Shown here: piece after piece, positions 19,839 to 56,943 of the stretch
How positions within the stretch are numbered: the stretch's first letter is position 1
Layout of the letters: every line of letters begins with the position of its first letter
Origin: Alphaproteobacteria bacterium
GTDB taxonomy: Bacteria > Pseudomonadota > Alphaproteobacteria > Rs-D84
Assembly: GCA_009783145.1 (NCBI GenBank)
Contig: WRHR01000001.1
Span: 492 to 64,491 of the forward strand
Reading direction: 5' to 3'
Length of the DNA stretch: 64,000 nt
Notes under the pieces: model-generated
What the model saw: the letters and a program-made list of their open reading frames with translations, nothing else
What the model was told of the DNA's origin: nothing
Database searches by the model: none
Program-made: the position numbers and the translations under genes

Positions 19839-19845
19839 TTTACGA

Positions 19846-22765: not shown

Positions 22766-25700
22766 GTGAAGAGAGAAGGCCGGAAAATCAGCTTGGTCGC
22801 GTTAATTATCGCCGCGTTCGTCGCGCCGGCAATGGGCGCCGATATAAACATAGTTACCTCCAAGCAATACGTCGACGCCAGGTTCAACCCTGCCGACGCC
22901 GCGACCAAGATTGCGGTCGTGACGCTTGACGCCAATAATCGCCCCATCGTAAAGAATGATAAGAGCATTTCAGACATACTCGGCGGCATAACTACAACGA
23001 CCACCGGTGCCGGTAATGCGGTTACAAGCATTTCCGACGACGGCGCGGGCCATATCACTGCGACCAAGGGCTCGACTTTCTTGACCGGCGAAACCGACCC
23101 GTCCATCGATACCACTGTCATGGGCACTGCGGCGACTGCCGCGGGAACGACTGGCACCGCGGGCAAGGTTTATACGGTTCAGAAAAATGCGGCCGGGAAA
23201 GCAGTCGTCAGCGTGCCTTGGATGGATAACAATACGACTTACACCGGCACCGCGCCAATTGATGTAACCGGTACTGTCGTGTCTCATAATACTTCCGGCG
23301 TAACAGCCGCAGCATATGGGCCCAGCGCTCCCGCGACTTTGACATCTGGCGGAACGTTTACCGTTCCCAGCGTGACTGTAGACGCAAGAGGACATGTCAC
23401 TGCTGCTGCTGCGCAAACCATGACTATGCCAAGCATACCTGCGGCTGCAAATAATGCCGCGATTAAAATAGCATATGCGACGACCGGCATAACGGCTGCA
23501 GGGAACTTTGCGACCGTCAATCAAGCGGCCGATAGTACTTTGACCTTGCATACTGTGGCAAGCACCGGAAGCTATAACGATCTGGGCAACAAGCCGTCGA
23601 TACCAGCGGCTCAGGTTAATAGCGATTGGAATGCAGGCAGTGGCGTTGCGCAGATACTGAACAAGCCGACAATACCGACTATAACTATGAACAACGCTGG
23701 GACTACGACGCCGAGCTTTTATGCTCCGACAGCAGGAGGCACTTCGGGTAATGTTCTGAAATCCACCGGGGCGACCAGCGCTCCGACTTGGGGGACATTG
23801 TCTTACTCTGATATTACTGGCACCCTGCCGCAGGTGCAATCTGACTGGGCTCAGGCGACAACGGGTGCGGCTGATTATATTAAGAACAAACCGACGATAC
23901 CAAATACTGCTGGCACTGGCATCAACATAACCGGCGCGACCATAACTAATACCGCGCCGAATTTGCAAACGAAGAATATTGTCGGAGCGGCGACCGGCGC
24001 GACTGCGAATGCGGCCTCTACGAACGGCAATACGTATTTGAATGCTGTTGAGAACGGCGCTGTGGTCAGCACTCACAAAATCGCTGGAGGCGGCGCGACT
24101 ACTGTTACTTCCGACGCTTCCGGAAACATAACCATCAGCAGCACGGATACGCCTCCTACGACATATACCGGCACCGCGCCTATTAATGTGACCGGTACTG
24201 TTGTATCTCATAATACTTCCGGCGTTACGGCGGCAACTTATGGTCCCGGCGCGAATGCGACATTGGCTTCGGGCGGAACATTTACTGTTCCGGAAGTTAC
24301 GCTCAATGCGACAGGACATGCGACCGGCGCCGCGACAAGAACATTTACCTTGCCGACTATATTAACCCATCCGGCCGGCGCGAACGGCACTTTCGGACCG
24401 GCTGCGAACGCGACACTGACTTATGGCGGCACATTCACAGTTCCGCAAGTAACCGTCGATGCGAACGGGCATACGACAACAGGCGCGACAAGAACATTTA
24501 CCATGCCGGCCGCGCCGACCGCTTATACTCACCCCAACGACGGCGGGGCTGGAACGTACGGTCCGGGAGCAGATGCAACATTAGTAAGCGGCGGCACGTT
24601 TACAGTTCCACAAGTAACCGTCAACGCTGCCGGGCACACGACTTCGGGCGCGACCAGAACGTTTACTATGCCCTCGATTCCCGCGGCTGCAAACAATGCA
24701 GCGATTAATATTGCATATGGCGCAACCGCAACAGCTCCGGGACAATTTGCGACTGTTGATCAATCAGCTGCTACAACTCTTACTTTGCATACTGTGGCAA
24801 GAACAGGAAGTTATGATGACCTGACTAACAGGCCGACTATTACGGATACTAAGATCAAGGCGTTCAACGGCAACGTTACTGCAGGCACGGCGGCGGCATA
24901 TACTCTTGCGACCACATATCCTGCGTTCACGGCGGCGGATATGGCTGACGGAACGGTAGTGTTTGCGACTCCGAACCAAACGAACTCCGCCGGCGCGACG
25001 TTATCCGTTGGCGGGCAGACAGCGCGTCCGATTTGGAATTCCGCGACCGGCGCGACTGTGGCGGCAAGCGCTTTGGTTGCGAACATGGCTTACTCGTTCA
25101 CGTATGACGCCACGAATAACAGATGGCATGCAAAGCAGCTGGATACAAACACGGTTTATACTCATCCGACCGGTGGTGCGAACGCTACGCTTGGTCCGGG
25201 GGCGAATGCGACGTTGACATTCGGCGGCACATTTACCGTTCCGCAAGTAACTGTCGATGCGAGCGGGCACACGACTTCTGGCGCGACAAGAACATTCACT
25301 ATGCCTGCGACGCCGACGGCTACGGGCACTGCGGGCGGCGATTTGACCGGAACTTATCCTAACCCGACTTTGACCACGACTGGCGCGGCTGCCGGAACTT
25401 ACGGCATTACGGCGGATGCGTCCGGATCCGGAGCAAGCTTTAAAGTTCCGAAATTCACTGTCGATACCAAGGGTCGTTTGAGCATGGCGGGAGAGAATAC
25501 CGTCACTATGCCGACGACAACGACTTATGCCGGCACCGCGCCAATTACCGTAAGCGGAAGCAGCATAACTCATGACGACTCCGGCGTAACGGCCGCAGCA
25601 TACGGGCCCAGCGCGCCCGCGACCTTGACATCCGGCGGAACGTTTACGATTCCGTCAGTTACCGTTAATGCAAAGGGCCACGTCACGGCGGCAGCAACTC

Positions 25701-28700
25701 AGACCATGACCATGCCTACGATACCGGCGGCGTTCACTCATCCGGCCGGCGCGAACGGCACATTCGGTCCGGCTGCGAATGCGACTTTGACTTATGGCGG
25801 CACATTTACAGTTCCGCAGGTAACAGTTGATGCGAATGGGCATACGACCACCGGCGCGACCAGAACATTCACTATGCCGGCGATTTACACTCATCCCAAT
25901 GACGGCGGAGCTGGAACATACGGTCCGGGCGCGGATGCTACTTTGGCAAGCGGCGGCACATTCACGGTTCCGTATGTAACGGTCAATGCGGCCGGTCATA
26001 CGACCGCCGGCGGAGTCAGAACATTTACCATGCCGACTTTATCGCCGAACTTGCAGACAAAAAATATCGTCGGCGCGACAACGGGGGCAACCGCGAACGC
26101 GGCTTCTACGAACGGCAACACATATTTGAACGCCGTTGAGAACGGCGCAGTGGTAAGCACTCACAAAATCGCGGGCAGCGGCGCGACTACCGTCATATCG
26201 GATGCGTCTGGCAATATAACTATCAACAGTCCCGCCGCCACGACATATACCGGAACTGCGCCGATTACCGTAAGCGGAAGCAGCATCACTCATGACAACT
26301 CCACCGTCACGGCTGGAAATTACGGTCCGGCGGCGAATGCGACGTTGACTTCCGGGGGAACATTTACAGTGCCGTATATCTCCGTCGACGCGAAGGGCCA
26401 TACAATCACAGGCACGGCGACAAGAACGTTTACGATGCCGACTATTACGGATACTAAGATCAAGGCGTTCAACGGGAATGTTACCGCGGGCACGGCGGCG
26501 GCTTACACTCTGGCAACTACATACCCGTCGTTTACGGCGGCAGATATGGCTGACGGAACGGTTGTGTTCGCAACTGTGAACCAGACGAACTCCGCAGGTG
26601 CGACGCTGGCTGTTGGCGGACAGACTGCAAGGCCGATTTTCAATACTGCGACTGGGGCTGCTGTGGCGGCGAGCGCGCTGATAGCGAACACGGCTTACTC
26701 GTTCACGTATGACGCCACGAATAACAGATGGCATGCCAAGCAGCTTGATACGAATACGTTAACGCGGGTTAATCTGAACAACGCGGGATTGAACAGCGGC
26801 GACATTACGGCGTTCTATGCTCCGACCGGGGGCGGCACGTCAGGCAACGTTCTGAAATCCACCGGGGCGACCAGTGCTCCGACTTGGGGGACTTTGAGCA
26901 CCAGCGACATCACCGATATAAATACATATGTTACGACGAACGCGGCCAAATCATTCAACGGGGCAACTACTACCTTGGCGACTAACGCTTACTCGCTCGC
27001 GGCAACGCAGCCGACGTTTGCGGCGGGGAATTTGGTCGCAGGCGCGGTGGTGTTCGCTACATTGAACGCGACGAATCCGTCGGCTGCTCCGACTTTGAAT
27101 GTGAATTCTACCGGCGCGAAGACCATCATGCTGAACGGCGCGGCGACGGGGGCGAGCGCTTTGGTTGCGAATGTCGCCTACTCATTCACTTACGACGGCA
27201 CGAACTGGAGCGCAAAGCAGCTTGATACGAATACGTTAACGCGGGTTAATCTGAACAACGCGGGATTGAACAGCGGAGATATTACGGCGTTCTATGCTCC
27301 GACCGGGGGCGGCACATCTGGCAATGTCTTGAAATCCACCGGAGCAACCAGTGCGCCGACTTGGGGGACGTTGTCTTATTCGGATATAACTGGAACTGCT
27401 CCGGACACCAAGATTAAGGCGTTTAATGGGAACCTTACCGCAGGCACGGCGGCGGCTTACACTCTGGCGACCACATATCCGACGTTTACAGCGGCGGATA
27501 TGGCTGACGGAACGGTTGTGTTCGCTACTGTGAACCAGATGAACTCCGCCAGTGCGACATTGTCTGTTGGCGGACAGACCGCGAGGCCGATTTTCCATAC
27601 TGAGACTGGCGCGGCCGTGAATGCGGGCTCATTGGGGACGTACAGGGCACATTCATTCACTTACGATGGCACGAACAACAGATGGTACGCAAAGCAACTT
27701 GATACGTACGAACATTCCGCATCAGGCAATCCTGGGCAATACGGTCCGACTTCCGGCGGAACATTGGCCTTCGGCGGCACATTTACCGTTCCATATATAG
27801 AGGGAAATGATCAAGGACATGTCATTGATTCTGGGGAAGTTACATTTACTCTGCCGGCGGCGCCGACTGTCACTGAAACCGATCCGCTGTTCAACGCCCT
27901 TGACGGGACAGCTGGGGCGACCACCGGGACTGCCCCGACATACCTTCTTACCACCGCCGCTGCAAAGAAGATAACTCTGACGACCGGCGCGCGCGTCATT
28001 ACGAAGATACATGCCGCCGCAACGGCCGCAGCCACTTTGAATGTAACCTCGAACAGTGTCGCTCTGGGGGCAAAGGCCATCTTTGTGAACGGTGCGGCGG
28101 TCAGCTCTACCAATCCGTTGAAAGCGAACGCGGTTTACGAATTCATATATGACGGGACTCAGTGGCAAGCGATTGGCACGGATACTATTCCGGATTTGAG
28201 CACAGTTGTTCCGACATACGAAACCGATCCGAAGTTCAACTACTTCGACGGCACGATTAGCGGAATGGCGCCGAGCTATACTCTTACCACGTCAAAAGTC
28301 ATACCTTCGCCATTGGCGGCTGGTGCCCGCGTGGTTGCAAAAATCCAAGGAACCGCAACATCTGCCGCAACTTTGACCGTTATTGCGAATGGCGTCAATC
28401 TCACTGCAAAGAACATATTTGTAAACGGCGCTGCAATCAGCTCGACCAATCCGTTGAAAGGCGCTGTTTACGAGTTCATCTATGATGGAACCCAATGGCA
28501 GATTATTGGCGCGATTCAAGATGTTGCAACAAATGAAGCCGACCCGAGGTTCTTCTTCTACGATGGGCAGACCGGCGGAACCGCGCCGAATTATACTCTT
28601 ACAACGACAAAGATCGTGCCCACCATGGTATCGGGCCCAGGCGCGCGCTTGGTCGTGAAATTTCATGCCGGCACGACATCCGCCGCGGCTTTGAACTTAA

Positions 28701-29293
28701 CCAGCGGAGTTAAACTCCTCGGCCAATATCCGATATTTGTGAACGCCGCCGCGGTAAGTCCGTCCAATCCGCTGAATGCCGCAGTTTACGAGCTCATCTT
28801 CGACGGCACTCAATGGCAGGCAATCGGTTCCGGCAGCGGCGGAGGCATATCTGCCGCGACGACGACTAAACTGGGCGGCGGAAAATTATTCTTTAATCCT
28901 TATCCTGGTATAGATCTGGGCGCAACAGAGACCGATTGTCTTGTGGACGAGACAGGGATGAAGGGTGAATGTCGTGCTTATCCGATCCAGCTTAATGACA
29001 CCGACGACAAAATGTATGTTGCAGTTCCGGATGCGTACACAGTAGTTAATAACGAATTTTATAACAACATACTTCCAAGCATTCCTGTCGCCACCATTGA
29101 ATACAGCGCGGGCAACGGAGGTTCGAACGGTATGATTCCAAAGATACCGTATGCCTGCCGCGCGGGACAGAATCCAAAGGTTACCTGCATGCTCGGATAT
29201 GGCGAATTTACCAGCAACGGCGCGAACGGCACGGGCGTTGATGCCGCCGGCGGATCCGGCACCGGATTCTATTGGGAAAAAGTCACACGTTGA
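22766..29293 (+). CDS. Giant repetitive secreted protein (2175 aa, GTG start). It carries more than 15 tandem repeats of about 45 aa (YGPxANATLTxGGTFTVPQVTVDANGHTTxGATRTFTMP) and C-terminal repeats of about 80 aa (...AKxIFVNGAAxSSTNPLKxAVYEFIYDGTQWQ).
   Basis: Single 6.5-kb ORF with a signal peptide and highly periodic Thr/Gly/Ala-rich repeats. Shadow ORFs on both strands are rejected. Confidence 0.7.
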   Translation: MKREGRKISLVALIIAAFVAPAMGADINIVTSKQYVDARFNPADAATKIAVVTLDANNRPIVKNDKSISDILGGITTTTTGAGNAVTSISDDGAGHITATKGSTFLTGETDPSIDTTVMGTAATAAGTTGTAGKVYTVQKNAAGKAVVSVPWMDNNTTYTGTAPIDVTGTVVSHNTSGVTAAAYGPSAPATLTSGGTFTVPSVTVDARGHVTAAAAQTMTMPSIPAAANNAAIKIAYATTGITAAGNFATVNQAADSTLTLHTVASTGSYNDLGNKPSIPAAQVNSDWNAGSGVAQILNKPTIPTITMNNAGTTTPSFYAPTAGGTSGNVLKSTGATSAPTWGTLSYSDITGTLPQVQSDWAQATTGAADYIKNKPTIPNTAGTGINITGATITNTAPNLQTKNIVGAATGATANAASTNGNTYLNAVENGAVVSTHKIAGGGATTVTSDASGNITISSTDTPPTTYTGTAPINVTGTVVSHNTSGVTAATYGPGANATLASGGTFTVPEVTLNATGHATGAATRTFTLPTILTHPAGANGTFGPAANATLTYGGTFTVPQVTVDANGHTTTGATRTFTMPAAPTAYTHPNDGGAGTYGPGADATLVSGGTFTVPQVTVNAAGHTTSGATRTFTMPSIPAAANNAAINIAYGATATAPGQFATVDQSAATTLTLHTVARTGSYDDLTNRPTITDTKIKAFNGNVTAGTAAAYTLATTYPAFTAADMADGTVVFATPNQTNSAGATLSVGGQTARPIWNSATGATVAASALVANMAYSFTYDATNNRWHAKQLDTNTVYTHPTGGANATLGPGANATLTFGGTFTVPQVTVDASGHTTSGATRTFTMPATPTATGTAGGDLTGTYPNPTLTTTGAAAGTYGITADASGSGASFKVPKFTVDTKGRLSMAGENTVTMPTTTTYAGTAPITVSGSSITHDDSGVTAAAYGPSAPATLTSGGTFTIPSVTVNAKGHVTAAATQTMTMPTIPAAFTHPAGANGTFGPAANATLTYGGTFTVPQVTVDANGHTTTGATRTFTMPAIYTHPNDGGAGTYGPGADATLASGGTFTVPYVTVNAAGHTTAGGVRTFTMPTLSPNLQTKNIVGATTGATANAASTNGNTYLNAVENGAVVSTHKIAGSGATTVISDASGNITINSPAATTYTGTAPITVSGSSITHDNSTVTAGNYGPAANATLTSGGTFTVPYISVDAKGHTITGTATRTFTMPTITDTKIKAFNGNVTAGTAAAYTLATTYPSFTAADMADGTVVFATVNQTNSAGATLAVGGQTARPIFNTATGAAVAASALIANTAYSFTYDATNNRWHAKQLDTNTLTRVNLNNAGLNSGDITAFYAPTGGGTSGNVLKSTGATSAPTWGTLSTSDITDINTYVTTNAAKSFNGATTTLATNAYSLAATQPTFAAGNLVAGAVVFATLNATNPSAAPTLNVNSTGAKTIMLNGAATGASALVANVAYSFTYDGTNWSAKQLDTNTLTRVNLNNAGLNSGDITAFYAPTGGGTSGNVLKSTGATSAPTWGTLSYSDITGTAPDTKIKAFNGNLTAGTAAAYTLATTYPTFTAADMADGTVVFATVNQMNSASATLSVGGQTARPIFHTETGAAVNAGSLGTYRAHSFTYDGTNNRWYAKQLDTYEHSASGNPGQYGPTSGGTLAFGGTFTVPYIEGNDQGHVIDSGEVTFTLPAAPTVTETDPLFNALDGTAGATTGTAPTYLLTTAAAKKITLTTGARVITKIHAAATAAATLNVTSNSVALGAKAIFVNGAAVSSTNPLKANAVYEFIYDGTQWQAIGTDTIPDLSTVVPTYETDPKFNYFDGTISGMAPSYTLTTSKVIPSPLAAGARVVAKIQGTATSAATLTVIANGVNLTAKNIFVNGAAISSTNPLKGAVYEFIYDGTQWQIIGAIQDVATNEADPRFFFYDGQTGGTAPNYTLTTTKIVPTMVSGPGARLVVKFHAGTTSAAALNLTSGVKLLGQYPIFVNAAAVSPSNPLNAAVYELIFDGTQWQAIGSGSGGGISAATTTKLGGGKLFFNPYPGIDLGATETDCLVDETGMKGECRAYPIQLNDTDDKMYVAVPDAYTVVNNEFYNNILPSIPVATIEYSAGNGGSNGMIPKIPYACRAGQNPKVTCMLGYGEFTSNGANGTGVDAAGGSGTGFYWEKVTR

Positions 29294-32465: not shown

Positions 32466-33464
32466 TTATTCTGTCTTAAACTCCAAAAACTTCGCGACGT
32501 TCGCCATAAAGTTCGGCATCTGCGCGCGAATTGTCACTATCTTTTTCGTTACCGGATGCCTCAGCGACAGCTTGTGCGCGAACAGGAACAATTTGTTGGA
32601 ATCCAGCATGGAATCCAAGATTGTGTTATCTGTGCTCTGTGCTCTGTGCTCTGTGCTCTGGCGATACAAAGTATCGCCGACTATCGGGGCGCCCAGCGCG
32701 AATGCCGAATGCAGGCGCAACTGGTGCGTGCGTCCGGTCTGCGGCGCAAACCGCACCCAGGTCAGGACTCCGGGCAGTCGTCCCAAGACCTCGTACTTCG
32801 TAATCGCGCGCTGCGGGCGAGTGCCACTCAAGCGCTGAAATTCATCCGCCTCATCCGACGACAGGACTTTTCCTTTCGCCATAAAGGTATCCAAAACGCC
32901 GCGGCCGACCGGAATGCTTCCGCGCAGCAGCGCCAGGTATTCTTTTGCCGCGGACTTGTCCCTGAACTGGGCCGCCAGGTGCTGAGCGGCGCGCTGATTC
33001 TTGGCGAAGACTATCACTCCGCTTGTCTCGCGATCCAGGCGGTGCACGGGAAGAATCGTGTCATAAGGGAACAATGCCGCCGCCATTTTATCAAGCGATT
33101 TTTTTATCCCGGTTCCGCCCTGCACCGCCAGACCCGCTGGCTTGTCGAACGCGACGAAGTCCGGATCGTCATGGATTATCAGCTTGCGTAATTTTTCCAG
33201 GTCGGCCAGAGAAAATTTAATTCCGGATTCCTGGCTTTTCGCTTGAGGGGACTGCTGCAGCGCGGCAAGAAAAGGCGGAATGCGCAAGTCGTCGCCCGAA
33301 TGCAGAATTTCATCGCCATGGCACCTCGCGGAGTTCACGCGCATCTGGCCTGATCGGCACAGCTTGTGAAATTCTCCGTCAGAAACTCGCGGATAGTGCC
33401 TCTTGACCCATCTTTTCAGACGGATTCCGTCTTCAGTGGAAGAGATTACAGTTTGTGTGCGCAT
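32466..33464 (-). CDS. RluA-family 23S rRNA pseudouridine synthase (RluC/RluD-like) with an S4 domain
   Basis: HRLDRETSGVIVFAKN catalytic motif and an S4-like N-terminus. The tandem heptamer GTGCTCT x4 in the 3' region is translated as HRAQSTEHRAQST. Confidence 0.85.
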   Translation of the reverse strand: MRTQTVISSTEDGIRLKRWVKRHYPRVSDGEFHKLCRSGQMRVNSARCHGDEILHSGDDLRIPPFLAALQQSPQAKSQESGIKFSLADLEKLRKLIIHDDPDFVAFDKPAGLAVQGGTGIKKSLDKMAAALFPYDTILPVHRLDRETSGVIVFAKNQRAAQHLAAQFRDKSAAKEYLALLRGSIPVGRGVLDTFMAKGKVLSSDEADEFQRLSGTRPQRAITKYEVLGRLPGVLTWVRFAPQTGRTHQLRLHSAFALGAPIVGDTLYRQSTEHRAQSTDNTILDSMLDSNKLFLFAHKLSLRHPVTKKIVTIRAQMPNFMANVAKFLEFKTE

Positions 33465-33473
33465 AGTTAAGGT

Positions 33474-33553
33474 AGAAAGTAGGAAGTAGGAAGTAGGAGG
33501 TGGGATATCTGCATTCTTTACTTCCTACCTCCTACTTTCTACTTCCTACCTGT
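33474..33553. repeat. Hairpin with tandem-heptamer arms (AGGAAGT)n / (ACTTCCT)n
   Basis: Seen directly between the pilin stop and the rluC start. Confidence 0.65.
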
Positions 33554-33554: not shown

Positions 33555-34085
33555 TTATTCCCCATATACTATATGAACCGCGTTCTGCCCTGCGGGCCCC
33601 TTGCAATCGTTCGGGATGGCGGTCGCGCCGCCGGACCGGCCGTTGGACGCCTGGTACCCGACAGAATCAGACCAAGCCTTTACTCTGAAGTACTCGCAGT
33701 CGGACGGGTTAAGGCCGTCTATGGTCAGAATGAACTGGCGCAAGTCCGACGGATTCACGGACAGCAAGTATTTTCCGCCGTACGGATTCTTGTCCGACAT
33801 GCCGATGGCGGCGAATATGGTACCGTTGTCCAGATTTGAAAAGTCGTCGTATTCGCCCAGGATGGTGCGAACGCCGGTGACTATCTGCGCAACTTCGTCC
33901 TGCAGCGCGGTGCGCTTTTGGCTGCGCATGGCGGCGGTAATCATAGTAATAGCGCCGACGGTTATAACGCCCATTATGGCCAGAACGCCCAGCATTTCAA
34001 TCATGCTTCTGCCAGATTCGCTGTCAGAAGTCGAAACGCGAAACGCGAAACGCGAAACGCGTAGTGAATCATATAATTTTCTCAT
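33555..34085 (-). CDS. Type IV prepilin/pseudopilin with a long leader of about 27 aa (type IVb-like)
   Basis: ...SESG|RSMIEMLGVLAIMGVITVGAI has the class III signal, with Gly at -1, Glu at +5 and a hydrophobic helix. The leader residues RVSRFAFRVS come from the heptamer arms of the element at 34020-34150. Confidence 0.65.
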   Translation of the reverse strand: MRKLYDSLRVSRFAFRVSTSDSESGRSMIEMLGVLAIMGVITVGAITMITAAMRSQKRTALQDEVAQIVTGVRTILGEYDDFSNLDNGTIFAAIGMSDKNPYGGKYLLSVNPSDLRQFILTIDGLNPSDCEYFRVKAWSDSVGYQASNGRSGGATAIPNDCKGPAGQNAVHIVYGE

Positions 34086-34150
34086 ATCAAACCTTTTTGT
34101 TGCGCCAACCCACGCGTCGCGCATCTCGCGTTTCGCGTTTCGATTTGCTT
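34020..34150. repeat. Heptamer-arm palindromic element (GAAACGC x4 ... CGCGTTTCG x2) spanning the pilin start codon
   Basis: Seen directly. Confidence 0.75.
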
Positions 34151-34179: not shown

Positions 34180-35706
34180 ATGATTATTCAATTTAGCAAT
34201 CTTATAGAACATAGTCCTAAATCGCCGGGCGTATATATGATGTACGACGCGACTGGGGTCTTGTTATATGTGGGCAAGGCAAAGAACTTGAACGCGCGCC
34301 TGCGCCAGTATCTGGACATATCGCAGCTGGAATGGCACAAAAGAGTAATGCGCAGCCTGGTCGCGCGCGTGGAATGGCAAAGATGCGCGACGGAATCCGA
34401 GGCGCTGGTGCTGGAGCAAGAGCTGATAAAAACCCAAAAGCCGAAATATAATATAATGCTGACGGACGGGAAGATGTACCCGATGCTGGCGCTGACGAAG
34501 CACCAATTTCCTCGGCTGGTGAAGTTCCGCGGCAAGATATCGCAAAAGAAAGACGTGTTCGGGCCGTACCCGTCGGCGGGCGCCCTGAACGACGCGATAA
34601 AGACGATACAGAAAGTATGCCAGGTGCGCACCTGCACGGACGGGTTTATGAGAAACCGGGCGCGCCCTTGCCTGTTGCATCAGATCGGGCGGTGCAGCGC
34701 GCCATGCGCGCTTTGCGCGCAGAGCATAGATTATGATAATAATGTAAAACTCGCGCGGCGTATCTTATCCGGCGACATTCAATCGGCGACGAAAGAATTA
34801 TCAAAGGAAATGCAGGCGGCGTCGGACAGGATGGACTTTGAAAAAGCGGCCGAGCTGCGCGATAAGATATCCGCGTTAAGCGCGACCGCGACCCGCGGCC
34901 GTATGCGGGCACAAAAGGCTGACGACTTTTCCGAATCGTTCGCGGCGCTGGAAAAATGGCTGAGGATGAAAATTGAAAAAGCGTTCGTGTTCGACAACTC
35001 GCACTTGTTCGGGAAAAGCCCGGTCGGCGCGATGATAGCCTTCGACCGCGCGGGCTTTGTGAAATCGGAATATCGGCATTTCAAATTAAAGGATAACGCG
35101 CGCGCCGGGAACGACATCGCGATGATGGAAGAATTCCTTTTGCGCTTCGCGCAAAAGGACGAAACGCGAAACGCGAAACGCGAAACGCGGGATTCAGAAA
35201 ATATGAATAATACTGTCCATTATAATGGACAATGCACGTCGTTATACGACCTGCGCGTCTCGCGTCTCGCGTCTCGCGTCTCGCTTATCATCGTGGACGG
35301 CGGGAAAGCGCAATGGAATATCGCAAAGAAAACACTTGGGGACGCGGCGGCAATACTTGGCGTGACCAAGGGCATCGTGCGCGACGGGGACGAGCATTTT
35401 ATTATGCCGGACGGCGACGAAGACCGCGGCTTGGCCAAAAATTCGCCTGTGTTTTTATTTCTGCGGCGCGTGCGGGACGAAGCGCATAGGTTTGCGATTT
35501 CGTTCCATCGCCGCAGCCGGGGCAAGTCCGCGATAACCAGCGCATTGGACGAGATAGAGGGCATCGGCGCGGCGCGCAAGAAAGCACTGCTGCATCACTT
35601 TGGTTCCGTAAGGCAAATTGCGGATTCGACTGCGGCGGATATAGCGCGCGCGCCCGGGATATCGAAAACAATCGCGGAAAAGATTTACTTGCACTTTCAT
35701 CCTTAA
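34180..35706 (+). CDS. uvrC: Excinuclease ABC subunit C, carrying a 47-aa in-frame repeat-element insertion
   Basis: GIY-YIG N-domain (GVYMMYDATGVLLYVGKAKNLNARLRQY), UvrB-interaction region, RNaseH-like domain (IIVDGGKAQ) and C-terminal HhH (GIGAARKKALLHHFGS). The insertion ETRNAKRETRDSENMNNTVHYNGQCTSLYDLRVSRLASRVSL lies between ...LRFAQKD and IIVDGG. Confidence 0.9.
   Translation: MIIQFSNLIEHSPKSPGVYMMYDATGVLLYVGKAKNLNARLRQYLDISQLEWHKRVMRSLVARVEWQRCATESEALVLEQELIKTQKPKYNIMLTDGKMYPMLALTKHQFPRLVKFRGKISQKKDVFGPYPSAGALNDAIKTIQKVCQVRTCTDGFMRNRARPCLLHQIGRCSAPCALCAQSIDYDNNVKLARRILSGDIQSATKELSKEMQAASDRMDFEKAAELRDKISALSATATRGRMRAQKADDFSESFAALEKWLRMKIEKAFVFDNSHLFGKSPVGAMIAFDRAGFVKSEYRHFKLKDNARAGNDIAMMEEFLLRFAQKDETRNAKRETRDSENMNNTVHYNGQCTSLYDLRVSRLASRVSLIIVDGGKAQWNIAKKTLGDAAAILGVTKGIVRDGDEHFIMPDGDEDRGLAKNSPVFLFLRRVRDEAHRFAISFHRRSRGKSAITSALDEIEGIGAARKKALLHHFGSVRQIADSTAADIARAPGISKTIAEKIYLHFHP
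35150..35290. repeat. Composite element inside uvrC: arms GAAACGC x4 / GCGTCTC x4 around the core AATAATACTGTCCATTATAATGGACAATG
   Basis: Seen directly. It sits in frame within the CDS. Confidence 0.85.
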
Positions 35707-35737
35707 TCTTTATAATCGGGCGGAAAAATCGTGAAAG

Positions 35738-35840
35738 TGCAGGTGCAGGTGTATTAGAGTATATGAATAATATTGTCCTTTATAAAGGACAACCTATATT
35801 GTTGCACTGATTCACCTGCACTTGCACCTGCACGATTTGC
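35738..35840. repeat. Composite element in the efp leader: arms GTGCAGGTGCAGGTG / CACCTGCACTTGCACCTGCAC around the core AATAATATTGTCCTTTATAAAGGACAA
   Basis: Seen directly. Confidence 0.8.
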
Positions 35841-36452: not shown

Positions 36453-36495
36453 GTTGGGGTGTTTTTATTTTTAACAAAAGTTTAAAAAAACTTTT

Positions 36496-36993
36496 GTCAC
36501 TCCTGCGTAGGCAGGAGTGGGCCCAGACAGTGCAAGCGTAAGCGAGCCTATAAACCTTTCACTATTATTTCCCCACAATCCAGCTTTCTAAAAAATTCTT
36601 CAGTCATTCCTTCTTTGGGCAAGATTTCATCCAATTCCGCCGCCAAATCCTTCCATTCCGGATTCATCGTTTCAATTAATCTATACTTCCAAGCCCGTTT
36701 CCATTTTTTAAGCGCTTTTTCTCTATCAATCGCCTTATCAACATATTGAAACCATTCGTAATAACCAAGTTTCTTCGTATTGTGTTCTTGCGAGTTTCCT
36801 TTTATCAATCCCAGTTTATGCTCCATAACACGACGTTCTAAATCGTTGGTCATACCGATGTACGTTGCCTGAGCGCGTTCATTGAACATGATATAAACCC
36901 AAAAATTGTATTCTTTGAATTCTTTCATAAAAAGAGAATAGCGAAGTTCGGAAATATTTTCAAGACCCACTCCTGCCTACGCAGGAGTGACAA
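36496..36993. mobile_element. Candidate mobile cassette: a GIY-YIG gene bounded by perfect 27-bp terminal inverted repeats TGTCACTCCTGCGTAGGCAGGAGTGGG. Each repeat is itself a family-B hairpin.
   Basis: The left TIR lies at 36496-36522. The right TIR at 36967-36993 is its exact reverse complement. The gene's start and stop codons abut the repeats. Confidence 0.45.
36548..36928 (-). CDS. Small GIY-YIG nuclease-family protein (URI-domain type)
   Basis: NFWVYIMFNERAQATYIGMTNDLERRVMEH...NPEWKDL. Paralogue of 17627..17935. Confidence 0.7.
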   Translation of the reverse strand: MKEFKEYNFWVYIMFNERAQATYIGMTNDLERRVMEHKLGLIKGNSQEHNTKKLGYYEWFQYVDKAIDREKALKKWKRAWKYRLIETMNPEWKDLAAELDEILPKEGMTEEFFRKLDCGEIIVKGL

Positions 36994-37024
36994 AAATTTT
37001 TCTTACGAAAAATTTTCTAAAATA

Positions 37025-37075: not shown

Positions 37076-37810
37076 TTACCGTTTTCTCGCGTTCAGTTCT
37101 TTTACACGTTGCTCGACGAACCGGCGAACGCCCGCCCAGAGATCCGCGCCCTCGTTCAGGTTGCGCGACGAGTGGTCCAGCGCGATCTGCGCGCAATCCG
37201 AACGGGCCCTGTTCCAAGCGCCCAGCGAAACATCCTCATCTTTATCCTCAAACAATCTTGCTATCTCGCCTGTCTTCGTGTTATACAAATAATACATCGC
37301 TACTGCGCCGTCCGATTCCCCCAGCTTTGTCTTCTTTACTTTCTTTGCGTATGTGCTTTCCTTGATACCAATCCCAGGGCCGGCGGTTATTCCGCACAGT
37401 TTCCAATCTGAATCTTTCAGCTCCGGCTGATTATCCACGAACTTCTTCGCACGCTTCATTTCCGCCTGGTCTTTATATATGGTATGGTTATTGTCGCCAT
37501 ACGCCGTGTTCAGGTAGAAATTATCCGCATTGTTGCTGTATACTCCATCCCCACCGTTAATGATATCGTACGCATAGCCCACAAGTTGGCTGTTCTGGTT
37601 GATGATCGTCGTCATCTTTGCCATTGTTTCTTTCAGATCAAGGGGTTTTACCTGGGATTCCAACCGCTCTAACCTTGCGGCCAATTCTTTGTTTTGAATT
37701 TCCAAATTTTTGACTTTAATGCTCAAGCTTTTATGACCGCGAAAAAAGAACTCGTAAACTTTATTTTCCGCAATCTGCTGCTTCAACGTTTTCGGCTTTT
37801 CATTAGACAT
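37076..37810 (-). CDS. DGR variable (target) protein: coiled-coil N-terminus, with the C-terminal VR encoding an Asn-rich CLec/FGE-sulfatase-like ligand-binding tip
   Basis: The C-terminal 40 codons (LGAWNRARSDCAQIALDHSSRNLNEGADLWAGVRRFVEQ) form a 120-bp VR matching the TR at 38055-38174. All differences sit at TR adenines. Confidence 0.8.
   Translation of the reverse strand: MSNEKPKTLKQQIAENKVYEFFFRGHKSLSIKVKNLEIQNKELAARLERLESQVKPLDLKETMAKMTTIINQNSQLVGYAYDIINGGDGVYSNNADNFYLNTAYGDNNHTIYKDQAEMKRAKKFVDNQPELKDSDWKLCGITAGPGIGIKESTYAKKVKKTKLGESDGAVAMYYLYNTKTGEIARLFEDKDEDVSLGAWNRARSDCAQIALDHSSRNLNEGADLWAGVRRFVEQRVKELNARKR
37113..37232 (-). repeat. DGR variable repeat (VR), 120 bp, at the 3' end of the target gene
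   Basis: Reverse complement is 110/120 identical to the TR. The 10 mismatches all correspond to A in the TR (A to C/G/T). Confidence 0.85.
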
Positions 37811-38054
37811 TTTTATATCCTTTGGTTGTTTGCCCGCGAATTGTACCGCAACTTATTATTTTGTCAAGCAATTTTTGCCGTTTATTTTTGTCATTCCCAA
37901 AAATTCGCGCAAATTCCCCATTTTGACGGCTTTAATAATAAACATCTATAGAATTGTTTGTCAAATCGCAAAATATATCGCTGGCGCGAATCGGACTAAA
38001 TTCCCAGACTGGGCCACAGGCCGTATATCGCAAAAAACCGTTGGTTTGCCGCCG

Positions 38055-38174
38055 TGTTTCGCTGGGCGATTGGAACAGGAACCGTTCGAATTGCGCGCAG
38101 AACGCGCTGAACCACTCGTCGAACAACCTGAACGAGGGCACGAATCTCTGGGCGGGCGTTCGCCGGTTCGTCGA
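38055..38174 (+). repeat. DGR template repeat (TR), 120 bp and AAC-rich, in sense orientation with the RT
   Basis: TGTTTCGCTGGGCGATTGGAACAGGAACCGTTCGAATTGCGCGCAGAACGCGCTGAACCACTCGTCGAACAACCTGAACGAGGGCACGAATCTCTGGGCGGGCGTTCGCCGGTTCGTCGA. It encodes GDWNRNRSNCAQNALNHSSNNLNEGTNLWAGVRRF. Confidence 0.85.
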
Positions 38175-38509
38175 TACTTGTTGTCAAAAGTTTAGCCAAC
38201 CCGGGGGACGCGGGGTTTCCCCGCCATAGCCGACACACAAGGCTGGATATGCGACCTTCTTGGGGCCAGGCCCCGGGAAAACACGATAACCGGGAAAGCC
38301 GCCACCCTTCGCGCTGGCGCGCTACGGGTGGCAGGCCCCCTGTGGTGCAATAACGCAAACGGCCGCGGCTTTGATTCATTTTTACAAAATCGCAAAGTGA
38401 TTTTGTCATTGCGGTTCCGGCCTTCGCCGGAATGACAAACCGGGTCCGCAATGACAATTTTTTGTTTTACAAAAAATTGCAAAAATAAAAAACAAAAAAA
38501 GAACCAACT

Positions 38510-38809
38510 ATGACCGATGAAATCCATTCCTTTTCTGACTTCGCCGACAGCCGCCCTGCCCTGGACGGCAGAAAGCGCCGCATCGACGAAGTCCTGAACA
38601 AGCCCATCACCGTTCGCGGGCACAAAATCATCGCTTCGAAAAAAAACGCGGGCGAAATGTGCCTGCACTTGCAATTCGAAATGGACGGCGAGCTGTGCAT
38701 ACTCTTCACCGGCAGCGCCGTTCTTATCGACCAATGCGAAAAGTACGCCGATAAAATCCCGTTCCGCACCAGCATCGTCCGCATAGATAAATATTTTTCG
38801 TTCTCGTGA
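38510..38809 (+). CDS. DGR-associated accessory ORF (99 aa), translationally coupled to the RT. It is not obviously Avd-like.
   Basis: Its stop overlaps the RT ATG (ATGA). It lies between the TR and the RT, where accessory genes usually sit. The sequence looks beta-rich rather than a helical bundle. Confidence 0.4.
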   Translation: MTDEIHSFSDFADSRPALDGRKRRIDEVLNKPITVRGHKIIASKKNAGEMCLHLQFEMDGELCILFTGSAVLIDQCEKYADKIPFRTSIVRIDKYFSFS

Positions 38810-39822
38810 CTTCGCTTTGGTCTGATTTTATATCCCATGAAAATTTCGCGCTTGCGCTGAAAAATGCAACCCGCGGGCGCAAGACCAAGCCTTCTATCGC
38901 GCATTTCTTGAAAAACGCGGACGAGAATTTGGAAAACCTGCGCCAGCTTGTCATCGCCGGAGGGTTCAAGACCTCGCCCTATCGCACCATGGAAATCACG
39001 GATCCCAAGCGCCGCACAATATACATTCTTCCTTTCTGCCCCGACCGATTGCTTCATCACGCCTTGATGAATATTCTTGCCCCGATATGGGAGGCCGGAT
39101 TCATCCGAGATTCTTATGCCTGCATCACGGGACGCGGCCTGCACTCCGCCAGCCGGCGCACCATGCAATTCGTACGCCGGAATCAATACGTGCTGAAATG
39201 CGACATCAGAAAATTCTATCCCAGCATCGATCATAATATAATGTATGAAATCGTGAAGAAGTCTCTTCCGCCCGGCAACGAGAATATCCTGGCCATCCTG
39301 CATGACATTATATACTCAACTGCAGGCGGCAAGAACCTTCCCATAGGAAACCTCTGCAGCCAATGGATGGGAAACCTGTACCTGCACGAAATGGATATAT
39401 ATATAAAGCATGAATTGCGCGTGCGAGATTATTTGCGATACAGCGACGACTTTTGCCTGTTTTCAAACGACAATGCCCAACTGCGCGGGTGGCGCGACAA
39501 AATCCGAGAATTTCTGGCCGCGCGATTGGGGCTGATATTTTCCAAGGCCGAGATTTTTCCAGTGTCGAACGGCCTGGACTTTGTCGGATACCGGCATTTC
39601 AAGGATTTCGTCCTTTTGCGCAAGCGCACGTTGAAAAAGATAAAGTCGCGCATGCTGGAAATCGGCGAGATGAAAAATATAGCACCCGCAAACGCGGAGC
39701 GCATTCGCGGCCAGGTTGCCGCGGCGCACGGCTGGCTGAAATTCGCGTGCTCTTATAACCTGCGCAAAAAGCTGCGGTTCGAAACACTAAAGAAAAAAGT
39801 CGGGATTATTGTTTCCAGTTGA
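38806..39822 (+). CDS. Diversity-generating retroelement reverse transcriptase
   Basis: RT motifs 1-5 are present: RRTIYILPFCPDRLLHHAL, SYACITGRGLHSA, YVLKCDIRKFYPSIDH, the DGR-specific LPIGNLCSQWMGNLYLHEMD, and YLRYSDDFCLF (YxDD). Confidence 0.9.
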   Translation: MTSLWSDFISHENFALALKNATRGRKTKPSIAHFLKNADENLENLRQLVIAGGFKTSPYRTMEITDPKRRTIYILPFCPDRLLHHALMNILAPIWEAGFIRDSYACITGRGLHSASRRTMQFVRRNQYVLKCDIRKFYPSIDHNIMYEIVKKSLPPGNENILAILHDIIYSTAGGKNLPIGNLCSQWMGNLYLHEMDIYIKHELRVRDYLRYSDDFCLFSNDNAQLRGWRDKIREFLAARLGLIFSKAEIFPVSNGLDFVGYRHFKDFVLLRKRTLKKIKSRMLEIGEMKNIAPANAERIRGQVAAAHGWLKFACSYNLRKKLRFETLKKKVGIIVSS

Positions 39823-41642: not shown

Positions 41643-42761
41643 ATGGAATTCTCAGTATTTCGCCAAGTTCTGATAAAGGCGCTGGGGCATATGCAGTCTA
41701 TCGTGGAAAAACGCGCGACTCTGCCAATCTTGATGAATGTGAAGATGGAGGTCTCGGACGACTTGGTGCTTTCCGCGACTAATGTAGACTTGGAATTGAT
41801 CGAGCATGTTCCGGCCGACATCACGCTGGCGGGGAAAATCACCGTGCCTGTGCAGATGCTGTACGACATCACGCGCAAACTGCCCGAAGATGCGGAAATC
41901 AAGTTCAAGCAATCCGGCGACCAACTGGTCGTATCATCCGGGCGCGCGGTGTTCCGCTTGCCCACGCTGCCGGCAGAAAACTTCCCCATGATGGCGAACG
42001 CCAATCTGACGACCAAGTTCGCTATGACCACCGGGGATCTGGCGCACCTTATCAATCAGACGAAGTTTGCGATTCCGACCGACGACGTGCGTTATCACCT
42101 TGGCGGGATTTACTTTCATATTACCGAGGAAGGCAAGCACAAGATGCTTACCGCGGTCGCGACGGATTCCCAGCGCTTGGCGTTATGCCAGATGGCGGCG
42201 CCGGAGGGAAGCGCGGAAATGCCCGCGGTTATCTTGCCGCGCCGCGTTATCGGAGAGCTGTCAAAACTGCTTGAAGACGCAACTGTTGATGATGTCACGG
42301 TGGAGTTGTCGGATACCAAGGCGCGCTTTACAGTTGGCGCCGCGACGCTTACCAGCAAGCTGGTCGACGCGCAGTATCCGAACTATCGCGTGGTGATTCC
42401 AAAGGGCAACGACAAAATCGCAACCATCGACAGAAAGCAATTTATCAGCGCGGTTGATTTGGTATCCATCGCCAGCCAGGATAAAACAAAGTCCGTGCAG
42501 TTGGAATTCTCCATGAACCGGCTGGTTATCAACGCGTCCAGCCCGGATGCTGGTGCGGCGACGCAGGAAATAGATATTGAATATAACGGCGACGATACGT
42601 TTGCGATCGCGTTCAATGTGAAGTTCTTGCTGGATATCGCGAACCAGGTCGAAGGCGACAAGTTCCAGATAGAAATGCAGGAACCGCTGAGCCCGACGAT
42701 CATAAAGTCCAAGGACAAGAAAACGGACGCATTATTCATCCTTATGCCGATACGTATGTAA
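41643..42761 (+). CDS. dnaN: DNA polymerase III beta sliding clamp
   Basis: Three-domain beta-clamp architecture, 372 aa, with an N-terminus of the MEFSVFRQVLIKAL... type. Confidence 0.85.
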   Translation: MEFSVFRQVLIKALGHMQSIVEKRATLPILMNVKMEVSDDLVLSATNVDLELIEHVPADITLAGKITVPVQMLYDITRKLPEDAEIKFKQSGDQLVVSSGRAVFRLPTLPAENFPMMANANLTTKFAMTTGDLAHLINQTKFAIPTDDVRYHLGGIYFHITEEGKHKMLTAVATDSQRLALCQMAAPEGSAEMPAVILPRRVIGELSKLLEDATVDDVTVELSDTKARFTVGAATLTSKLVDAQYPNYRVVIPKGNDKIATIDRKQFISAVDLVSIASQDKTKSVQLEFSMNRLVINASSPDAGAATQEIDIEYNGDDTFAIAFNVKFLLDIANQVEGDKFQIEMQEPLSPTIIKSKDKKTDALFILMPIRM

Positions 42762-44040: not shown

Positions 44041-44068
44041 AAAACCGCCCAACGGGCGGTTTTTTATT
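44041..44068. terminator. Bidirectional terminator AAAAACCGCCCAACGGGCGGTTTTTT between pgsA and dnaA
   Basis: Seen directly. Confidence 0.75.
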
Positions 44069-45356
44069 TGCATTCGTTTATCATCTGTTCCAGTTCAGCA
44101 TTCAGGATCAAGTCGGTCTTGCGCGCGGATTCAATTTGGGCGATTCCATACAGCACCGTCGCATGATCTCGGTCGCCCATCAAGCGCCCTATTTCAGACA
44201 AAGACAATTTCGTCGCGGATTTCAGTGCGAACATCATTATCTGCCGCGCGCGGACTATGGCGCGCGTCCTTGCCGGACTGCATACCGCATCGAACGAAAC
44301 CCCCGTCTTGTCGCACATCGCACGAACCATCCCCGTTGGGGTTTTGTTTTTCTGCAGCGAATCAGACAGCAGCCTTTCCGCGACTTCAACCGTGACTTTT
44401 TCATCCATCAACTCACTATATGCGCTGATTTTTTTAAGCACCCCCGCAACCAGATGCCCGTCCGCCGCAATGCGCCCGGACAAAGCGTCCGCGACATCCG
44501 CGGGCGCGCCCGCGCGTCCCAGCATCAGCCTGCGCACCGTCCGGTTCGGCGCCGTCAGATCCGCCGTCAGCCCGCTGGCCAAGACCGATTGCACGCGGCG
44601 GTCGAATCCCCCCAGACTCGCGGGAGCCGCGTTCGCGGTCAGGACAACGTTTGTTCCATTCCGAATCAAGTCCAAAACCAGCGACAGGAATTCGTCAGTG
44701 CAGGCGCGCTTGCCGGAGAGACACTGCACATCGTCCAGTATAAAAGTGTCGCAATTGCGGCAGAAATCCTTAAAAGCGAAAACGGACTTTTCGTTTATAG
44801 CGCGCAGGAATTCGGATACGAACCCGGCGCCCGTCATCATCAGCACTTGGCCGTTCGCGGCCGTATTTATGCAATTCGCCAGCAAGGTTTTGCCAGAACC
44901 CGGCGCGCCGTAAATGAAAAGGGGCGAAAAACTGACCGTACCGCTCGCCAATTTTTTCGCCGCCGAAACCACGAAAGAGTTCTCTTCCGAAACGATAAAA
45001 TCGTCAAAAGCATTCTTAACCTCGGCGACGACGCGAAGCGGCCGCGACGGGCGAAACTCCGAAACATTATTATCATTGACCGATGTCGTGACCGTTTGCG
45101 CGGCGCGCCCCACCCCAATGGATAATGCCAGTCCCAAATCCGCCGCGACGGATTCCAGAATATTAAGATAAGTTCTTTTGATAAAATCGGCGGAGAATTG
45201 ATTTTGAGCGACGATATTCAGATTATTTTCGAAGACGGAGACTTTCAGCGGGGCGATCCAAGATTCATAAACGCCAGCGGGCATTTTTGCTGCGATAGCT
45301 TTTCGGATAGATTCCGGGTTTGTCGCCCGAACCTGTATCGAAGCCGCTGCCTGCAT
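44064..45356 (-). CDS. dnaA: Chromosomal replication initiator DnaA
   Basis: AAA+ Walker A GAPGSGKT, and domain IV ...LSLSEIGRLMGDRDHATVLYGIAQIE... Confidence 0.9.
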   Translation of the reverse strand: MQAAASIQVRATNPESIRKAIAAKMPAGVYESWIAPLKVSVFENNLNIVAQNQFSADFIKRTYLNILESVAADLGLALSIGVGRAAQTVTTSVNDNNVSEFRPSRPLRVVAEVKNAFDDFIVSEENSFVVSAAKKLASGTVSFSPLFIYGAPGSGKTLLANCINTAANGQVLMMTGAGFVSEFLRAINEKSVFAFKDFCRNCDTFILDDVQCLSGKRACTDEFLSLVLDLIRNGTNVVLTANAAPASLGGFDRRVQSVLASGLTADLTAPNRTVRRLMLGRAGAPADVADALSGRIAADGHLVAGVLKKISAYSELMDEKVTVEVAERLLSDSLQKNKTPTGMVRAMCDKTGVSFDAVCSPARTRAIVRARQIMMFALKSATKLSLSEIGRLMGDRDHATVLYGIAQIESARKTDLILNAELEQMINECK

Positions 45357-51102: not shown

Positions 51103-51143
51103 ATATCTCTCCCTACTAGCGACTAACGACTAGCTACTAGTGA

Positions 51144-56935: not shown

Positions 56936-56943
56936 ACAATAAA

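Follow-up and report, generated by a model that had tools for sequence, protein, structure and literature searches.

The stretch of DNA considered here (64,000 nucleotides of contig WRHR01000001.1 from an Alphaproteobacteria bacterium, assembly GCA_009783145.1; hereafter the window) contains, within the gene order AsmA-RluC-prepilin-UvrC-EF-P, a uvrC gene whose reading frame holds a palindromic repeat element. A first-pass annotation, made from the sequence alone, had proposed such an element inside uvrC, and both its arms and its core are present and far above chance; the frame from 34180 to 35706 is uninterrupted, and its translation agrees with the peptide read at that time. The insert is a member of a lineage-specific class of hairpin-forming repeats, which is found in small (~0.9 Mb) termite-gut Alphaproteobacteria of the 'Rs-B50 group'. 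Its repeat unit proper spans 35161-35282 (122 nt), beginning with a left arm of four GAAACGC units (35161-35188, plus strand, translated ETRNAKRETR) and ending with a right arm of four GCGTCTC units (35255-35282, plus strand, translated RVSRLASRVS), which together make up an inverted repeat of 30 nt with 87% complementarity. The centre between them (35189-35254) comprises three small hairpins (35192-35208, 35214-35231 and 35234-35254), the second of which is the core, a perfect 18-nt palindrome TGTCCATTATAATGGACA. In addition, a flank hairpin with an 11-bp stem, TCCTTTTGCGC-TTC-GCGCAAAAGGA (35135-35159, plus strand), adjoins the left arm of the element; its own left arm codes for the native residues FLLR, while its right arm (AQKD) is an inverted copy of the left. 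The length of 141 bp originally given for the element is approached only when this flank hairpin is included.

Chance does not account for the uvrC repeat. When up to two mismatches are allowed, the 14-mer GAAACGCGAAACGC has 26 matches in the window vs 2.1 expected, a number reached by none of 100 shuffles, and the core, with up to three mismatches, has four matches vs 0.03 expected. The two arms are imperfectly complementary (GAAACGC vs GAGACGC), such that each unit has one A.C mismatch on the plus strand and a G.U pair on the minus strand. Since each A.C mismatch becomes a G.U pair, the minus-strand RNA forms an uninterrupted 30-bp stem, and folding of the 171-nt region gives -76.8 kcal/mol for the plus strand (z = -7.1 vs shuffles) and -96.7 kcal/mol for the minus strand (z = -11.7). 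A search of the whole window against Rfam returned no match at gathering thresholds, and a sensitive scan of 35100-35320 gave sub-threshold matches only, namely a plant miRNA precursor (30.8 bits vs a 70-bit threshold) and Wolbachia sRNA 46 (18.7 bits vs 65.3), which are treated here as generic long-hairpin similarity.

The protein encoded by this frame retains all domains of UvrC, namely GIY-YIG, UVR, RNase H-like and HhH, and its invariant catalytic columns are conserved. Its homologues come from uncultured Alphaproteobacteria or 'Rickettsiales' metagenome-assembled genomes (MAGs), and are mostly 463-475 aa long. In an alignment with 19 of them, ~41-44 extra residues appear between the helix NDIAMMEEFLxR and the strand IVDGG; the extra segment is missing from most orthologues, and none carries the same residues minus the repeat features, as ancestral sequence would. 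The insert corresponds to residues 328-369, between the helix NDIAMMEEFLLR and the strand IIVDGG, and is a low-complexity peptide of 42 aa that includes ETRNAKRETRDSENMNNTVHYNGQ; a protein search with this peptide gave no candidates. The excess over the syntenic orthologue in L002 (L-numbers denote loci fetched for comparison) is 123 nt, or 41 codons, so that the 47 added residues initially reported were too many; the peptide written out with that figure itself has 42. The location has also been corrected, as the insert had been placed between the UvrBC-interaction region and the endonuclease domain. It lies inside the RNase H-like nuclease domain, because the Pfam domain UvrC_RNaseH_dom (PF08459) matches residues 265-440 with the insert within them, because the C-terminal halves in the crystal structures 3C65 and 2NRT match in two pieces (query 270-322 and 368-507) which only ~13 residues connect in those chains, and because of the AlphaFold2 model. 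In this model, which is of moderate quality (mean pLDDT 67.8, pTM 0.39), the preceding helix runs on into ETRNAKRETR, and residues 340-365 have pLDDT below 50 between better-modelled flanks; the insert is predicted to form a helix extension and a disordered loop, with the catalytic motifs intact. Among repeat-free orthologues the linker between EEFLxR and IVDGG varies from 5 to 13 aa, and the uvrC element occupies a naturally variable linker in the RNase H-like nuclease domain.

This variation in linker length, as well as the FtsE linker of L031, which consists of non-repeat sequence of similar length (28 aa vs 38 aa in the window), would be compatible with there having been no insertion at all, the segment being either an ancestral hypervariable linker lost elsewhere or a sequencing or assembly artefact. 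We regard this explanation as very improbable, for the same modules recur at ~12 other sites in the window, intergenic ones included, and the arrays are 100% perfect though flanking neutral sequence is saturated between lineages. An assembly artefact is ruled out by the occurrence of identical sequence in independent NCBI and ENA assemblies: an identical 508-aa protein is encoded in an NCBI MAG (MCL1891697.1), and the same uvrC insert is found on two ENA contigs, L232 being 100% identical to the window over 21,470 nt. An intein or a self-splicing intron was also considered and rejected, as Pfam finds UvrC domains only and no Rfam family matches at gathering score.

Approximately 13 elements, built with at least seven different heptamers and amounting to ~2% of the window, are collected in Table 1. 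Their general plan consists of two inverted arrays of ~4 tandem 7-nt units round a variable centre. Tandem-repeat finding places the arrays mostly in inverted complementary pairs, 10-70 nt apart, with units that differ between sites, and a count of window arrays with at least three copies gives 14 at period 7 vs 0-1 at periods 5, 6 and 8-11. Throughout the window and the related loci, paired arrays contain 3.4-5.7 copies (mostly 4.0-4.7), and every pair has ~4 on both arms. GAGACGC/GAAACGC units are found at 18820, 34032, 35161, 52426 and 56831, and the GCACAGA unit at 32629 and 51050. The four core copies in the window (14621, 35214, 35774 and 61104) are alike over ~45 nt round the palindrome and stand within four arm types. 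However, arms plus centre do not always represent one inserted unit, because the prepilin and secretin arrays flank native start codons. In the prepilin gene, the arms enclose a native segment of 52 nt that contains the ribosome-binding site, the ATG and the first eight codons, and whose homologue in L111, the 5' region of that gene, has no arms; one of these arms adds 14 residues to the leader peptide (DSLRVSRFAFRVST).

Table 1. Coordinates of uvrC and of the repeat elements in the 64-kb window.
Feature	Position	Strand	Context
uvrC (host gene)	34180-35706	+	ORF from ATG 34180, 508 aa
AGTCGCT-type arms with core copy	14567-14675		intergenic, directly upstream of gene 14055-14549
GAGACGC/GAAACGC arms	18820-18931	+	in frame, FtsE C-terminal linker, aa 233-270
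ATTTACG/AAATCGT arms, 10-nt centre	19838-19905		fills spacer from ftsX to next gene
ATAAAGA x4.3 array	22521-22550	-	codes for FFILYSLFFI, hydrophobic core of TolB signal peptide
Single TCTGTGC x4.6 array	32629-32660	-	in frame, RluC-like pseudouridine synthase, aa 269-279
GTAGGAA/TTCCTAC arms	33472-33549		fills rluC-prepilin spacer; the two genes overlap in L002
GAAACGC-type arm pair (34032-34061, ~34114-34142)	34032-34142		5' end of prepilin-like gene
Hexamer arms GTGCAG/CTGCAC with core variant TGTCCTTTATAAAGGACA	35735-35835		uvrC-efp spacer, not in L002
Two non-complementary arrays	51050-51146		flank secretin start codon
CAGAGCA x4.6	51050-51081		codes for core of secretin lipoprotein signal peptide
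ACTAGCG-type array	51115-51146		upstream of secretin start
Decayed member of GAAACGC family	52426-52519		divergent intergenic region; unit variants common to both arms
GAAACGC/GCGTCTC member	56831-56934	+	N-terminal region, or possibly 5' untranslated region, of ORF 56812-57825
AATTAGC/GCTAATT arms with core copy	61053-61187		between convergent genes

Seven of these elements lie wholly or partly in apparent open reading frames (ORFs), namely those of UvrC, FtsE, RluC, TolB, the secretin, the prepilin leader and ORF 56812, although the true start of the last may lie downstream of the element, which would place that copy in the 5' untranslated region. The signal peptide of TolB (region 22508-22640) consists of MLKK plus 23 extra residues including FFILYSLFFI, 43 aa in all, vs MLKKLLLSVCFCLLPLWAHA (20 aa) in the L002 orthologue, which has no ATAAAGA array; in the secretin, the array (51050-51102) yields SVLCALCSVLW ahead of the LGGC lipobox. 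In both proteins, repeat DNA appears to have replaced the native signal-peptide sequence. Three tandem heptamers traverse all three frames, and therefore only units without a stop on the coding strand can stay perfect within genes. GAAACGC/GCGTCTC and GCACAGA are free of stops on both strands, and most of the stop-containing units are intergenic. In three in-ORF arrays of related loci, variant units stand where a stop would otherwise fall: the third unit of the left arm of L109 (GTTAGCA GTTAGCA GAGAGCA) escapes an in-frame TAG, the TGCGGGC of its right arm (TGCTAAC TGCGGGC) escapes an in-frame TAA, and the TCAATTA that follows three GCAATTA units in L231 escapes an in-frame TAG. These substitutions offer direct sequence evidence that selection would keep the frame open across arrays inside ORFs, which would mean that such segments are translated. 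As the frame is open and in-frame stops are avoided, we infer that the ribosome reads through the element.

Comparison with related loci demonstrates that the elements are absent from some relatives and recurrent at particular sites. L002 keeps the order AsmA-RluC-prepilin-UvrC-EF-P at ~72% nucleotide identity, and is without all five elements of the window region 32.4-36.5 kb, its spacers being correspondingly short or overlapping. No heptamer arrays are found in L002 (21 kb) or L108 (13 kb), and they are abundant in L003, L109, L110, L111 and L231. Altogether, 378 kb of related loci contain 66 arrays from 46 heptamer families, and most of these families are confined to a single element; AATTAGC arms are present in three different genomes. 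At the UvrC linker, L003 has a GAGACAG hairpin, L109 a GTTAGCA hairpin, L110 an AAGAGCA/GATAGCA hairpin and L231 an AGTAAAG/ACTCTCT hairpin with an 11-nt centre, while L111 carries a GC-rich palindromic element of another kind. In every carrier the array at this linker is preceded by the flank hairpin, whose left arm corresponds to native FLLR or FLSR codons and whose right arm (AQK, ARK or AKK) fits each lineage's own version of the left arm; the two arms are CTTTTGCGC and GCGCAAAAG in the window and L109, CTTTCGCGC and GCGCGAAAG in L003, and TTTTGCGTGC and GCACGCAAAA in L231. The flank hairpin is degenerate in the element-free L108 and absent from L002. Similarly, the RluC loop that holds GCACAGA x4.6 in the window is occupied at the same place by another heptamer in L231, and carries an insert in L109 as well, nothing being inserted there in the remaining loci compared.

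The UvrC orthologues also carry repeats outside the arrays of this linker. An insert of CCTCATC x4.1 is found elsewhere in the protein of L110 (1849-1877), and L111 (CAGCTAT x4.4, 6535-6565) and L231 (GCAATTA x5, 6534-6568) have inserts at the same site after SAPC, which yield the similar peptides QLSAISYQLS and QLAISNYQLA, respectively. L003 uvrC contains a separate SIVIPRQNSVVIPR insert at ~5059-5140, and the linker element of L111 (~7000-7170) belongs to a GC-rich palindromic class of the type CCCCGCCC...GGGGCGGGG, which surrounds many core copies in the MAG Hm464_bin176 (L016, L023, L037, L049 and L054). A metagenome scan for GAAACGC x3 covered very diverse environments, in which the termite-gut genomes concerned were not sampled; 116 of the 119 matches listed have no inverted partner within 260 nt. 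Inverted GCGTTTC/GAAACGC arrays ~110-140 nt apart do occur in L119 (887-1065) and L224 (1500-1730), which belong to unrelated organisms (43% and 57% GC), and paired GAAACGC arrays are therefore not confined to the termite-gut clade.

The core palindrome is dispersed separately from the arms. The 19-mer pattern TGTCCWTTATAAWGGACAA was searched for in one genome per species (~600 Gb), where single hits in many phyla are about as numerous as chance predicts. Multiple hits per genome are limited to termite-gut MAGs, with at least 14 loci in Hm464_bin176, the others being Pcl387_bin15, Emb289P1bin35, Lab288P3bin136, Lab288P3bin109, Nt197P3bin78, Nt197P3bin44 and Cu122P5bin52. Four multi-hit MAGs that were looked up are classed by their authors as Alphaproteobacteria, Rs-B50 group, 'Termite group', and the assemblies of the three more complete of these four bins amount to 0.8-0.9 Mb and are 75-90% complete (PMC7024585 supplement). 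The fetched loci contain 54 distinct core copies, accompanied by many different heptamer arms or by other repeat types, or standing alone. The core often has an A-run on one side and a T-run on the other, as a bidirectional terminator would, and a consensus scan flags it as terminator-like, in uvrC on the minus strand. It lies inside heptamer arms in the window (14621, 35214 and 61104) as well as in L020, L031, L039, L062 and L078, and in L031 and L039 a second, related palindrome stands beside it within one arm pair. Across the 54 copies, covariation is seen at the +/-2 position only (46% Watson-Crick vs 29% expected), and pairing beyond it is at background; the core is therefore a palindrome of 20-22 bp, and an extended stem around it is ruled out.

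Several of these observations would suit a classical non-autonomous transposon, similar to a miniature inverted-repeat transposable element (MITE) or a Rickettsia palindromic element (RPE), in which the arms are terminal inverted repeats for a transposase encoded elsewhere, and the uvrC copy reflects a recent in-frame transposition into a permissive loop. Five GAAACGC-armed copies in 64 kb, a core dispersed through many genomes of the clade, the syntenic L002 without all five neighbouring elements and the AATTAGC arms of three genomes all agree with mobility, and the perfection of arms in the window, which ranges from 100% to decayed, is what activity bursts would leave behind. Nevertheless, the elements have no full-length consensus, as the five GAAACGC-armed copies have unrelated centres, and the 66 arrays represent 46 heptamer families, too many for one sequence-specific transposase to recognise. 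Moreover, arms can flank native sequence, and no target-site duplication or obvious flanking direct repeat is discernible, the closest empty sites (~72% identical) being too diverged for the junctions to be read. The 64 kb contain no transposase, but only a partial ORF resembling tyrosine recombinases and the reverse transcriptase of a diversity-generating retroelement (DGR). We hold a transposon of this kind to be unlikely, though the likeliest of the rival explanations.

The arrays at start codons raise another possibility, namely that the element is a functional structure such as an RNase III or stability site, an antisense terminator, a translational pause, a means of start occlusion or an inversion switch. 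In the window, the prepilin gene has its ribosome-binding site and start codon between the two arms, and the same holds for L110, where another heptamer makes up the arms at these two positions; L109 likewise has an array at each position, though its second one repeats with a period of 13 nt and does not complement the first. Arrays bracket the secretin start codon too, the minus-strand RNA of uvrC has the uninterrupted and more stable stem, the core is terminator-like on that strand, and architecture and arm complementarity persist while the sequence changes between lineages. Inverting the uvrC centre in silico produces a stop at codon 348, so that both orientations of the centre cannot encode full-length UvrC. 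Such a function is nonetheless improbable, considering that the elements are found in contexts of every kind (3' ends, 5' ends, convergent gaps and at least five unrelated proteins), that they share no common orientation or partner gene, that Rfam offers generic long-hairpin hits only and no match at gathering score, and that a stem does not need tandem-repeat perfection. As regards a switch, the independent contigs examined are all in one orientation, and the centres, at 10-66 nt, would seem too short for a recombinase to form a synapse.

We consider it probable, with moderate confidence, that these elements are selfish or neutral hairpin DNA which arises through slippage and template switching, acquires a nested core, and is filtered by selection on the reading frame. 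The arrays would arise, and become uniform, through slipped-strand replication in steps of 7 nt, while template switching within the hairpin, as in quasi-palindrome correction, would hold the arms complementary and equally long, and would also account for the inverted copy of the native FLLR codons beside the element. The core would be a second, nested module that lands in the centres of hairpins, and purifying selection would filter the survivors within genes, leaving stop-free heptamers or arrays with a variant unit where a stop would fall. Local genesis is favoured because the 66 arrays fall into as many as 46 heptamer families and because native sequence can lie between arms, and some dispersal is added because of the five GAAACGC elements and the dispersed core. 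The element DNA probably has no sequence-specific role in UvrC, and looks like selfish or neutral structural DNA that the protein merely tolerates.

Not all of the evidence sits easily with this combination of slippage, template switching and selection. GAAACGC/GAGACGC units are used in 5 of the ~13 elements, and both CAGAGCA and AGTCGCT-type units appear twice; such sharing of heptamers is not expected if genesis is purely local and suggests dispersal of some kind, and the core, with its 54 distinct copies, is clearly dispersed. Since slippage by one 7-nt unit shifts the frame, slippage on its own does not readily explain how arrays within ORFs are homogenised. Alleles with an empty site or a changed unit number were looked for and not found, as contigs from the same organisms are 100% identical. 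Furthermore, carriers of the UvrC insert are non-monophyletic on a neighbour-joining tree without support values, which fits either one ancient insertion with arm turnover and losses or repeated gains. A more far-reaching process, structure-driven and sequence-independent, might rebuild hairpins in 7-nt steps at the same positions, such as the UvrC loop, the prepilin start and the RluC loop, while the heptamers turn over; we think this doubtful, and it would amount either to an uncharacterised enzyme activity or to a peculiarity of the replication and repair machinery of the clade. In a stronger version, some of the pairs would be very small invertible or start-occluding switches, for which the prepilin and secretin starts and uvrC are the candidates.

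Comparison with known repeat systems suggests that familiar ingredients are combined here in a new lineage. Tandem heptamers of the STRR type in Nostoc and other cyanobacteria, reportedly described by Mazel in 1990 and by Elhai and colleagues in 2008, are said to exist in several types and often in hairpin-forming pairs, and the latter work is said to have found palindromic SDR units of 21-27 nt embedded in STRR centres, sometimes nested twice; STRRs reportedly also reside inside a functional gene, that of RNase P RNA. As in that system, period-7 arrays dominate the short repeats here, and a core of ~20-22 bp is nested between arms and doubled in L031 and L039, but the phylum, the heptamers and the core sequence differ, the present host being a termite-gut alphaproteobacterium and not a member of the Nostocaceae. 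The units CCCCAGT, TTGGTCA and CAACAGT, which we take to be typical of STRRs, are not among the heptamers found in this study. We know of no description, for STRR/SDR, of frequent in-frame occupation of essential genes or of recurrent occupation of a single loop. The STRR/SDR system with its nested repeats is the closest in anatomy on our comparison, and the heptamer pairs of Xanthomonas also appear closer than RPEs.

In Xanthomonas, arrays of GGGAATC mostly have four units and make up 70-75 convergent inverted pairs per genome, which can form stem-loops, and related species differ in how long the arrays are and where they lie (Rehm et al. 2015, PMC4692102). They are based on a single G-rich, quadruplex-prone heptamer and are 89-93% intergenic (PMC4692102). 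The present elements resemble them in having ~four units per array and convergent inverted pairs. In contrast to one heptamer without a nested core, however, many heptamers are used here, none of the G-quadruplex type or with such a GGG tract, and about half of the elements touch ORFs. The TAACTGA repeats of Beggiatoaceae and Cyanobacteria occur in 2-6 copies concentrated by start codons, as direct repeats of one heptamer with one inverted pair reported (MacGregor 2015, PMC4679880). Where arrays of that unit persist in ORFs, and which way round, is dictated by its stop codons, and heptanucleotide repeats, which are the commonest long simple-sequence repeats of bacteria, have been ascribed to polymerase slippage (PMC4679880). 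The present arrays are similar in their occurrence at start codons and in the constraint that stop content places on survival within ORFs.

The first-pass annotation had drawn a parallel with RPEs, which holds for the outcome, in-frame read-through, but not for the anatomy, as there is no conserved full-length consensus. RPE families have a conserved consensus of ~100-150 bp that codes for a conserved peptide, and many copies lie in frame in unrelated housekeeping genes, where they are tolerated as extra surface peptides (PMC10969869). Both systems comprise short hairpin-forming palindromic repeats in a reduced alphaproteobacterial genome, with in-frame copies at permissive sites of unrelated proteins (here UvrC, FtsE, RluC, TolB and the secretin). 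Unlike RPEs, the copies described here share modules only, either a heptamer type or the 20-bp core, their centres are variable or native, their arms are tandem heptamer arrays of many sequences, and the host is not Rickettsia. Repetitive extragenic palindromic elements (REP/REPIN), MITEs and SPRITEs are likewise small dispersed palindromes, which are often situated in intergenic DNA at 3' ends, and many core copies here look like terminators (A-run, hairpin, T-run); however, the core lacks the GTAG or CGTC tag of REP/REPIN, some copies occupy ORFs, so that the elements are not purely extragenic, and no RAYT/Y1 transposase is found among the proteins of the 64-kb window. As for MITEs, inverted arms are present, but the window has no transposase gene. 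The matched arms of the flank hairpin, and the unit variants common to both arms of an element, are reminiscent of quasi-palindrome correction. In E. coli, work from the Lovett laboratory reportedly attributes to template switching the perfecting of imperfect inverted repeats and the copying of changes between arms, although this is said to be a process of point mutations or short patches, and is not known to build arrays of 4 x 7 nt. No description of such elements in termite-gut Alphaproteobacteria was found in the literature searched. Two features are apparently new, in that we have not seen them described, namely the frequent in-frame residence in essential genes and the recurrent occupation of one protein loop by different heptamers.

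Bacterial heptanucleotide arrays have reportedly been known since 1990, in the form of STRRs. The present clade may be a tractable comparative system for their origin, the recurring number of ~four units and the inverted pairing, with genomes of ~0.9 Mb, sisters with and without arrays, and the same sites occupied by different heptamers. Outside Rickettsia, hairpin DNA appears to have been written into essential proteins, including a loop of UvrC, a linker of FtsE and the cores of two signal peptides; if so, it would be a source of new peptide material. The elements also matter for annotation, since they shift start-codon calls and lengthen ORFs in MAGs, and annotation pipelines could misread them as frameshifts or assembly errors.

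Downstream of uvrC, an island at 36.5-40.6 kb is absent as a whole from the syntenic L002. It includes a DGR (37076-39822) with a reverse transcriptase gene (38806-39822, plus strand) and a template repeat (38055-38174, 120 nt), which pairs with the variable repeat (37113-37232) at the C-terminal end of ORF 37076-37810 (minus strand). At all 10 mismatched positions the template has an A, which is replaced by C, G or T in the variable repeat, and the 99-aa ORF at 38511-38810 may encode the accessory protein. As the DGR has its own pair of template and variable repeats, its reverse transcriptase is not linked to the heptamer elements, and was rejected as their mobiliser. A small GIY-YIG nuclease gene (36548-36970, minus strand) lies within 36486-37001, between two inverted repeats of 36 nt with 97% complementarity. 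Each repeat is a REP-like hairpin, CACTCCTGC-GTAG-GCAGGAGTG, with a GTAG loop, and only these two copies are present in the window.

The window adjoins a likely replication origin, given the presence of dnaN (41643-42761, plus strand), dnaA (44064-45356, minus strand) and dprA (45564-46580, minus strand). The spacer between dnaA and dprA contains TGTATAGACAC x2 (45534-45554), a repeat conserved in L002 at 19202-19222. A 345-aa ORF (8431-9468) may be a degraded integrase, since its similarity to phage-type tyrosine integrases is limited to their arm-binding and central domains, with no hit to the catalytic domain. Finally, a 2175-aa ORF (22766-29293) contains a 477-nt tandem repeat x2.6 (26446-27706), and a 667-aa protein (15141-17144) combines 45-nt repeats (15997-16102) with a YadA-like anchor; the two are probably located at the cell surface.

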